From the UHGV virus genome UHGV-0153413: DNA of 14,300 bases; one strand, 5' to 3'. Both the position numbers and the translations under genes were made by a program. Each line of letters starts with the position of its first letter. Position 1 is the stretch's first letter. Origin of the DNA: a virus. A model generated the notes under the pieces. It made no database searches, was not told the origin of the DNA, and saw only the letters and a program-made list of their open reading frames with translations. Positions 1,919 to 4,235 of this stretch are shown piece after piece.

Positions 1919-2203
1919 ACCCGCTTTCACGAAGGTCATGTGTAGAAGGCCGCAGCATAACTATCACTGATGAATTCAGGATAGCCAGTGGCTACGGCTC
2001 AGTTTGGATTGTGGCGACCGGTGCTGATCTCCGGTTTGCTGCAACTGCCTACAGCGGGCTACGTGGCCACACCGAATCCAGCGAAAGATTCTTGCCCTTA
2101 CACATCAGCCTGTGCATTCACCACAACGATAAGAGCACTGCGCGGCACCTTTCACCAATTCCGCGAGGTCTGCGGGTTCAATGCTCTTACCTGTTATGCA
2201 AAC

Positions 2204-2245
2204 AAAAAAAGCCACCGTTGCAACTTAAGAGTCACTAACGGCAGC
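2204..2245 (-). terminator. Candidate tR'-like terminator just downstream of the Q gene
   Basis: Minus strand GCUGCCGUU, 17-nt loop, AACGGUGGC (9 bp including two G-U pairs), then U7. Lambda-like sequence (CATAACAGGTAAGAGCATTGA...) begins immediately after the U-tract. Confidence 0.5.
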
Positions 2246-2255
2246 TTACCCTCTA

Positions 2256-2285
2256 ATTATGGCTAAATGGCTAATTGCATGTCAA
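2256..2285 (-). promoter_or_regulatory. Candidate late promoter pR' (-35 TTGACA, 18-bp spacer, -10 CATAAT)
   Basis: Minus strand ccTTGACAtgcaattagccatttagcCATAATtagaggg. The -35 lies in the last codons of Q and the -10 just after the Q stop, in the expected position for a Q-modified promoter. Confidence 0.5.
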
Positions 2286-2781
2286 GGCTTTTAACAGCAA
2301 CATGCTTAACTTTCTCAACACGTTTACGCATTTTGAAAGCATTTTGCATTGGCTGGTATAAAACAAATAATGACGCTTTCAGGATGTCGTCAATTTCGTT
2401 TCTACAGGTTGCCAGTGAAGGTTTTCTCCATCCCTCGCCACCACGTCCACACATCTTGCGTGGCTTTGCAGTCGCGTGATAGTAGGATGCAATTGCTCGC
2501 TTAGATGAACCATGAGCGTAGTAGCTGAGGAGGATGCCAAAGGCTTTCTTGTCAATGTACATGACGGAATCGACGACCTGAGAAATCAACATTCCATCAT
2601 CATCATTACACATTGGCCTTGTCATAACTCTTCCCGGCTCTACGCTCTCCATGAACTTCGCTATTACGCTGCTCATGCGCTTTTCCAGACGACCTGAATA
2701 AACCCATGCGCCCCACAGTTCAAGCCAGCCATTCAGCCACTCATGCTGTTCTTTGGTGAGGTTTAGTTCTCTTATGCCCAC
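2263..2781 (-). CDS. Q: Late-gene antiterminator Q (not the lambda Q type)
   Basis: 172-aa ORF immediately upstream of the late promoter and S, in the Q position after ninI. GTG start with RBS GGGAGAAGG, overlapping the ninI stop. Does not resemble lambda Q as recalled, so it likely belongs to another Q family (21/82/P22 gp23-like); family not determined. Confidence 0.7.
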
Positions 2782-3443
2782 GCGCCTTCTCCCTGTACCT
2801 GAATCAATGTGAGGTTTCCGCAGAACACTGCGCCGGTATCGATATACATCTGGTTGGAAAACTTGAGTGGTTTCACTGCTGGCGTATGACCAAAGATGAA
2901 CGTGTCCGTGCCTTTGATTTCTTTCACGATCCCGTCTTGTGAGTTGCTGATTCGTTCGCGGTTCCAGATTACCTGCTGATGATCAACTGGCTTTCCAAAC
3001 TCGTATTCGTCACAAGGATAATCGGCGTGGCAGATGACATATTTTTTATCTTTGCTCACCAGTTCGATGATTAACGGAAGTTCATCTGCTTTATGGGCAA
3101 GAGCTTTAGCCAGAATTTCTTTGTCGTAATCGAGATTAAAGAACCAGCCACCGCCATTAAGCATCCAGTGATTGACGTTTCCGCGCTCTGATAAGCCATC
3201 AATCATCATTTGCTCATGGTTTCCACGTACAGCTCTGAACCAGGGGAATGTGATTAATTCCAGGCATTCGACGTTCTCTGTACCGCGATCGACCAAATCG
3301 CCAACCGAGATAAGCAGGTCTTTTTTGGTGTCGAATCCTATCGTCTCCAGTTTTTTCATCAGGTTCGTGTAGCATCCGTGCAGATCGCCAACTACCCAAA
3401 TATTTCGGTATTTGCTGCCATCAATTCTTTCGTAATAGCGCAT
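2772..3443 (-). CDS. ninI: NinI Ser/Thr protein phosphatase (lambda PPase)
   Basis: [29 protein letters not shown]...GNHE... carries the calcineurin-like metallophosphatase motifs GDLHG, GDLVDRG and GNHE. Near-identical to lambda orf221 from memory. ATG at 3443..3441 with RBS GGAG; the 248-aa track ORF is an upstream extension. Confidence 0.9.
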
Positions 3444-3627
3444 CTCTTTCACTCCATCCGCGATGAACCATGAGAACGTCGTTGACGATGGCGTGCATTT
3501 TCCCGTCTTTATCATCAACGTATTTTCTGACCGTACCGCGACTACATTTCAGTCTGCGTGCTACTTCTGTCTGGTTTCCGTATGCTTCAACGAGCATGTC
3601 TGGAATGGTTTTTACTGAGAACGTCAT
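3421..3627 (-). CDS. ninH: NinH
   Basis: 68-aa [40 protein letters not shown]..., matching lambda NinH from memory (HTH-like). Overlaps the ninI start. Confidence 0.85.
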
Positions 3628-4235
3628 GCGGCCTCACTTCTGCTATTTCGCAGGTCTTTGAGTTTCTGCTGATACTCCGCCTTGATGGCCCTGCACTCTT
3701 CGACAGTCCAGCGATGGCGGTTATGGTTTGATTCGATTTCGTCTACTGCTTCCTGCCCGATGCGATTAATCAGTTCGACGCGATACGGAACGAGATTTCC
3801 GCTTTTGTGCTGGTTGCACACCACGCATTGCTTGTGAATATTGCGTTCATCAAATCGGAGTTGAGGTGCCGCAGCAGTTGTCCGGTAATGCCCGGCATCC
3901 CACTGAGCAGACGTGAGCGTTCCGCACGAGATACATGGTAAGTCGCGGTCTCTTTCTCTGATGAAGGCGTTTACGGCTTGCTGGGCTTGTTTAATCCAGT
4001 AACTGCGGGGCTTTAAGGCGAGTTTTCGAATCTTCAGTTTATCTTTCTGTTTCTGCTCCTCTCGTCGTCGTTTCTTCTCTGCTGCTTTTTCCGCTTTTTC
4101 GCGTTCTTTGCTTCGTCGTTCGAGTGCTATCTTTGTTCCACACTCTGGAGAGCACCACCACTGATTAGCGAATGCAGGGTGAAACCATTCCCGACATTCT
4201 TCGTTTTTACATCGTCTTCGCGCTGGTTTAGCCAT
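3624..4235 (-). CDS. ninG: NinG (Rap) recombination-promoting endonuclease
   Basis: 203-aa [36 protein letters not shown]... with Cys-rich N- and C-terminal motifs, matching lambda NinG/Rap from memory. Confidence 0.9.

Follow-up and report, generated by a model that had tools for sequence, protein, structure and literature searches.

The window analysed here, a stretch of 14,300 nucleotides from the virus genome UHGV-0153413, contains a region which, on the evidence of its sequence, is very probably the late-gene regulatory cassette of a lambdoid phage or prophage, of the phage 21 type and, within that type, of the sub-variant carried by Sf6, L and HK75. Cassettes of this sub-variant are already known, being annotated in Sf6, HK75 and CUS-3 and discussed for phage L, and the one described here, being of the phage 21 type, is thus an ordinary one. 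A short leader combined with Q-binding repeats inside the promoter is textbook phage 21 architecture. The preliminary description of this DNA had taken the arrangement of the late promoter pR' and the terminator tR' as unusual; that claim fails, the same architecture being that of phage 21 and annotated in Sf6 and HK75. As the phage 21 architecture is also the one used for cryo-EM structures of Q-loading complexes, it has little discovery value here. What the analysis provides is the anatomy of the sequence, the positions of the module breakpoints, the register in which the repeats lie and the homology of the whole to the characterised cassette of phage 21; start site, pause, termination and Q-dependent read-through of the window variant are predicted by analogy with phage 21.

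The region is not rare. Of 5426 complete E. coli genomes, 751 contain a 171-bp portion of it; among the ten best E. coli records listed, 6 show 100% identity. The same portion is also found in 96 phage records. In a search with the whole window, no single phage or E. coli genome covered at least 80% of it: the window is a mosaic. All the features of the cassette and of its surroundings, from ninG to Rz, lie on the minus strand, in the order ninG, ninH, ninI (matching Pfam NinG, NinH and Metallophos, respectively), Q, about 500 bp of non-coding DNA, S, R and Rz. Their coordinates, together with those of the regulatory elements, are reported in Table 1.

Table 1. Late-gene regulatory cassette and flanking modules. 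Positions are those of the window; +1 is the predicted transcription start.
Feature	Position	Strand	Basis or comment
lambda-like end of ninG, ninH, ninI	2779..3667	-	blastn, 97% identity
Q antiterminator, phage 21 family, 172 aa	2263..2781	-	GTG start, TAG stop 2265-2263
Q codons 1-94	2781-2500	-	97% DNA identity to phage 21
Q codon 95 to position -1	2499-2250	-	66% DNA identity to phage 21 (L005)
late promoter -35, TTGACA, within Q codons	2280..2285	-	aligns with annotated phage 21 late-promoter -35
upstream Q-binding subsite (putative), AATTAGCC, core TTAGCC at -25 to -20	2269..2276	-	phage 21 register
downstream Q-binding subsite (putative), ATTTAGCC, core TTAGCC at -17 to -12	2261..2268	-	phage 21 register
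late promoter -10, CATAAT	2256..2261	-	promoter scan
predicted start, G	2249	-	phage 21 start-site homology and standard -10 to +1 spacing
leader, +1 to end of U-tract	2249-2204	-	98% DNA identity to phage 21
sigma-dependent pause element (predicted), TAAGCT, +2 to +7	2243..2248	-	identical to the annotated phage 21 element
terminator hairpin, 17 pairs, one bulge	2209..2247	-	RNA fold; sequence identical to the phage 21 terminator
U7 tract	2204..2210	-	+40 to +46
likely linker after the U-tract, GTTTGCATAACAGGTAAGAGCATTGA	2178..2203	-	matches the sequence just past lambda's own late terminator
patch without detectable lambda similarity, 164 bp	2014..2177	-	blastn
S, lambda-type holin	1763-1440	-	
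R	1456-980	-	
Rz	983-546	-	

The Q gene shows no blastn similarity to lambda. Its product matches Pfam PF06530 (E = 1e-25) and is unrelated to lambda Q at the sequence level, in agreement with the earlier remark that this is not the Q of lambda. It matches instead the solved phage 21 Q structures, PDB 6jnx and 6p18 (E about 1e-92), and is 86% identical to phage 21 Q over 162 amino acids, residues 1-94 being identical. The window protein is 10 amino acids longer, and the 3' end of its gene, with the stop codon, overlaps the promoter and the QBE, whereas phage 21 Q ends 7 nt before the -35 hexamer. Among the residues by which phage 21 Q contacts DNA, those touching the backbone (S93, K94 and T125) are kept, as are R113, A124 and R127 among those contacting the bases; the contact changes are H95 to R and R128 to N, so that two of the five base-reading residues differ. 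On the opposite strand, antisense to Q, the sequence TTGCGTGGCTTTGC (2456-2488, plus strand) fits the CII-binding consensus TTGCN6TTGC and is accompanied by a -10-like TAGGAT, 17 bp past its central hexamer; an antisense promoter, paQ, and a CII site are annotated at the homologous position inside Q in the phage 21 record.

The phage 21 late cassette, to which the window is best compared, was reportedly described by Guo, Kainz and Roberts in 1991 (PMID 1704887), as its GenBank annotation states. The complete phage 21 record annotates a -35 hexamer, a QBE (ATTGAGCA/AATGAGCA), a -10 hexamer, a start at 39541, a pause element and a terminator at 39543-39590, and an older record has a 50-nt RNA at the site of the late leader. 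The two cassettes share gene order, Q fold family, the positions of the repeats relative to +1, the TAAGCT element, the hairpin, the U7 tract and a leader of about 46-50 nt. They differ in their downstream partner, which is a lambda-like S/R/Rz module in the window and tRNA genes and the pinholin cassette in phage 21, and in part of the promoter: TTGACA is common to both, while the -10 is CATAAT after an 18-bp spacer in the window and AACACT after 17 bp in phage 21.

Within the promoter spacer of the window, two 8-bp direct repeats, AATTAGCC and ATTTAGCC, occupy positions 2276-2261, in the same register as the upstream subsite ATTGAGCA and the downstream subsite AATGAGCA of phage 21, respectively. 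The downstream repeat includes the Q stop codon and shares its last position with the first base of the -10 hexamer. The one-base difference in length between the two phages falls between the -35 hexamer and the first repeat, so that the distance of the repeats from the pause element is kept. In phage 21, the C:G pairs at -21 and -13 are required for antitermination (Shi 2019, PMC6606751), and the numbering of the window repeats agrees with these positions. According to the preliminary description, the Q-binding and pause elements would be compressed into a very short transcribed region. This does not hold: the repeats lie in the promoter spacer and only TAAGCT, at +2 to +7, is transcribed, just as the phage 21 QBE is located between -35 and -10, outside the transcribed region (Shi 2019, PMC6606751; Yin 2019).

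The leader is nearly the same in the two phages: 45 of 46 bases from +1 to the end of the U-tract match phage 21, and the sequence from TAAGCT through U7 is identical. The TAAGCT element also contributes to the 5' arm of the hairpin that precedes the U-tract. The RNA corresponding to 2250-2196 is predicted to fold with an energy of -20.2 kcal/mol (z = -3.7), and none of 200 shuffled sequences was as stable. A simple terminator scanner did not report this hairpin, because of its bulge and G-U pairs. With a U-tract at +40 to +46 and a leader of about 46 nt, the short distance from pR' to tR' noted earlier is real; it is short, however, only relative to lambda, where 194 nt separate the start from the end of the U-tract (the classical 6S RNA), and is normal for the phage 21 family. 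More distant leaders, found in Enterobacter phage vB_Ecl_MII_001 (L129) and Salmonella phage SE16 (L130), keep both TAAGCT and the hairpin; in leaders of this type the changes in the stem are mostly one-sided with pairing kept, and one relative has an internal loop.

A leader so similar in cassettes that share only 66% identity over the adjoining 250 bp might suggest that the RNA of about 46 nt has, beyond its role in cis, a function in trans as a small RNA of the lysogen. A model is offered by StxS, likewise a short constitutive RNA which runs from an antiterminated late promoter to the late terminator: short transcripts of this origin can be Hfq-binding regulators, and such RNAs have also been noted for phage 21 (PMC7547250). 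StxS is longer than the window leader, however, and is processed to a 74-nt form which binds Hfq (PMC7547250). Moreover, the pause element, the hairpin and the U-tract already account for nearly every base of the leader, whose invariance may equally reflect recent recombination through the segment, and when the whole window, the leader included, was compared with Rfam at the gathering thresholds, no family matched. The scan of IMG/VR performed here, which retrieved 120 loci by an exact 38-nt match to the leader, selects for that 38-mer and is thus unfit as a measure of leader conservation. By analogy with StxS a regulatory role in trans may be conceived, but we regard it as unlikely.

The hairpin lies 53 nt 3' of the Q stop codon, as expected of an operon terminator, and it could accordingly be read as serving solely to end the early rightward (nin-Q) transcript, free of any control by Q. 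Marking the end of the early operon and responding to Q are, however, compatible roles. The pause element is contained in the 5' arm of the hairpin and a QBE-bearing promoter lies immediately upstream; furthermore, read-through in response to Q was assayed on the identical terminator of phage 21 (Shi 2019, PMC6606751). A terminator exclusively of the early transcript is, on these grounds, very improbable.

The promoter, formed by TTGACA, an 18-bp spacer and CATAAT, matches the consensus at 11 of 12 positions. As had been pointed out in the preliminary description, whose interval 2204-2290 takes in the 3' end of Q and the next 60 nt, it is buried in the 3' end of Q: it spans the last ten codons and the stop codon of the gene, the TAG lying between the two hexamers. 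Taken alone, the match is weak evidence, since about 19% of Markov-1 random sequences of the size of the window hold one as good; what makes it convincing is where it lies and that it is homologous to the late promoter of phage 21. The suggestion that it arose by chance within Q, the true late promoter lying elsewhere, for example downstream of the hairpin, where the HK629 record indeed sets a "putative late promoter" past a terminator, is hardly credible: the window promoter aligns base for base with the characterised late promoter of phage 21, with the register of QBE and pause element kept, no second match of at least 11/12 occurs in the 14.3-kb window, and HK629 itself has the same Q, QBE and CATAAT promoter, followed by a pause-like hexamer and a terminator of its own. 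Among the IMG/VR loci, TTGACA is found in every upstream variant bearing a promoter, and both TTGACA and CATAAT are invariant in all loci of the Sf6/L type, although the surrounding 3' half of Q is only 66% identical to phage 21. The start previously proposed near 2249 agrees both with the usual spacing and with the annotated phage 21 start: the predicted G, like the start in phage 21, is located 7 nt past the -10 hexamer and 1 nt ahead of TAAGCT.

In Sf6 (gene 59), HK75 (Q), CUS-3 (Q) and phage L (gene 23), the corresponding regions have essentially the same sequence as the window. The records of Sf6, HK75 and CUS-3 annotate a promoter, a Q target site and a terminator at the same places; in Sf6 the promoter is described as "nearly identical to phage 21 late promoter", and in CUS-3 the stretch from promoter to terminator is labelled as a "boundary sequence", bsq4. 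For phage L, a variant QBE, its overlap with the Q-like gene and a following gene located 46 bp past the predicted start have been discussed (10.1101/2020.10.05.325894). The upstream repeat is AATTAGCC in the window and Sf6, and AATTATCC in HK75, CUS-3 and L; past the terminator, Sf6 and L have tRNA genes, while the window has a lambda-like stretch.

With lambda the region shares its logic: a constitutive promoter whose spacer holds a QBE, a pause that depends on sigma, and, ahead of S, an intrinsic terminator. The S, R and Rz genes are homologous in the two phages, as is the sequence just past the U-tract. The promoter, in contrast, is placed differently: in lambda it follows the Q stop codon at a distance of 43 nt, and in the window it overlaps the end of Q.

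Module breakpoints were placed by blastn against lambda, phage 21, Sf6 and HK75. On the left, the junction coincides with the overlap between the ninI stop and the Q start: the lambda-like sequence breaks off with the Q start codon (2779), a boundary (ninI/Q) for which the lambda record itself notes a recombination point. From there to 2210, across Q, promoter and hairpin, blastn detected no similarity to lambda. On the right, lambda similarity resumes inside the U-tract, at 2210, confirming the mosaic junction previously placed there. The sequence beyond had been described as lambda-like throughout; this is true of 2210-2178, U-tract included, which is 88% identical to lambda 44775-44807, and of 2013-735, which begins upstream of S and is 93% identical, while the intervening 2177-2014 has no detectable similarity. 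This 164-bp patch, which stands in for 128 bp of lambda, is shared with HK75 and CUS-3, and neither an ORF nor an RNA family could be convincingly recognised there. The short lambda-like segment at 2178-2203 is likely a recombination linker, to judge from these alignments.

About 120 nt upstream of S, a further hairpin (1922-1880, minus strand; -30 kcal/mol, followed by GUUUUG) is conserved in lambda, and might act within the late leader, either as a weak second terminator or through RNA stability. As a selected structure it was rejected, the pair which looks compensatory in comparison with lambda being often mismatched across loci.

The other relatives place the junctions consistently. Similarity to phage 21 spans 2794-2199, ending just past the U-tract; Sf6 is 99% identical over 4137-2205, beyond which its sequence departs from that of the window and continues with tRNA genes; HK75 and the window are collinear, at 94% identity, all the way from Q through Rz. 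A tRNA scan of the whole window found none, and the window is thus without the tRNA-Asn and tRNA-Thr which follow the terminator in phage 21 and Sf6. With respect to phage 21 (L005), the real discontinuity is inside Q, at about codon 95; the divergent 250 bp (2499-2250) hold the DNA-binding half of Q and the repeats.

Among the 120 IMG/VR loci, the 38-nt leader is preceded by repeats of the phage 21 type, by repeats of the Sf6/L type or by an HNH endonuclease gene, and is followed by tRNA-Asn or by a lambda-like TGCAYAACAGG (TGCAYAACAGGTAAGAGCATTGA), and all combinations of upstream and downstream partners occur. The same lambda-like stretch follows lambda's own late terminator. These alignments identify the U-tract and its flank as a shared linker, joining unrelated Q cassettes to different downstream modules. 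The cassette is flanked by short, nearly identical sequences, namely the ninI/Q overlap at one end and the U-tract with TGCAYAACAGGTAAGAGCATTGA at the other, through which it would recombine with varying neighbour modules. Both the ninI/Q overlap and the late terminator's U-tract are clearly recurrent boundaries between modules in lambdoid phages.

A more elaborate arrangement is seen in HK629 (L001, 2018-2730), where the same Q, with repeats of the TTAGCC type and a CATAAT promoter, is followed by a different leader, featuring the pause-like hexamer TATGCT and the hairpin AAGCCCACCTCCTGTGGGCTTTTTT. Next come an HNH endonuclease gene and a second, promoterless copy of the phage 21-type leader and terminator; phages of this type thus have two tandem late-operon terminators with a gene between them. 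The same arrangement occurs in 10 of the IMG/VR loci (for example L029, L041, L050 and L077).

By analogy with phage 21 (Yin 2019; Shi 2019, PMC6606751), the cassette is expected to work as follows. RNA polymerase with sigma-70 would start at the constitutive late promoter, with +1 near 2249; sigma region 2 would then bind again, to the -10-like TAAGCT, and the polymerase would pause or backtrack with the transcript in its mid-teens, the complex of phage 21 being arrested at +14 (Shi 2019, PMC6606751). Without Q, transcription would end at the hairpin and U7, yielding a transcript of about 46 nt. Once Q has accumulated, two protomers would, like those of phage 21 Q, occupy the two 8-bp repeats and engage the paused polymerase, one of them as a ring narrowing the RNA exit channel. 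The ring would prevent the hairpin from forming, so that transcription continues through S, R and Rz to the remaining late genes, the structural genes among them.

The sub-variant also differs from phage 21 in the core of the repeats, TTAGCC in the window and TGAGCA in phage 21, with two of six positions changed. The residue changes at 95 and 128 of Q parallel this change of the core. Binding of the window Q to the TTAGCC repeats is predicted from the sequence, and H95R and R128N are consistent with an altered specificity rather than with a loss of binding. In the IMG/VR loci which could be scored, R95 and N128, with the 10-amino-acid C-terminal extension, go with TTAGCC-type repeats in 57 of 57, and H95 and R128 with TGAGCA repeats in 38 of 38. 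Such co-occurrence fits a co-evolved change of specificity, although physical linkage by itself could suffice to explain it. The repeats of Enterobacter phage vB_Ecl_MII_001, CCTTTAGCC/ATTTAGCC, extend the TTAGCC type beyond Escherichia and Salmonella.

For phage L, the equivalent repeat has been proposed as the QBE, the Q-like protein was reported to diverge from residue 94 on, with three of six contact residues different, and a difference in specificity from phage 21 has been predicted in print (10.1101/2020.10.05.325894). A study of the co-transfer of interdependent lambdoid genes makes no mention of Q and its site (PMC9836094). We tentatively suggest, with somewhat more doubt than confidence, that the Sf6/L-type Q (R95, N128 and the tail) and its TTAGCC repeats are orthogonal to phage 21 Q and TGAGCA, and that the pair is swapped as a specificity cassette of about 250 bp. 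The exchange would proceed by recombination between the polymerase-binding half of Q (97% identical) and the near-invariant 46-nt leader (98% identical).

Should the two pairs prove orthogonal, only the experimental proof and the framing as a cassette exchange would be new. The window would then exemplify a natural second specificity in the phage 21 Q family, in which two base-reading residues of the protein and two positions of the core change together, and its Q/repeat pair could be used for probing how Q reads its site or for building orthogonal antitermination switches.
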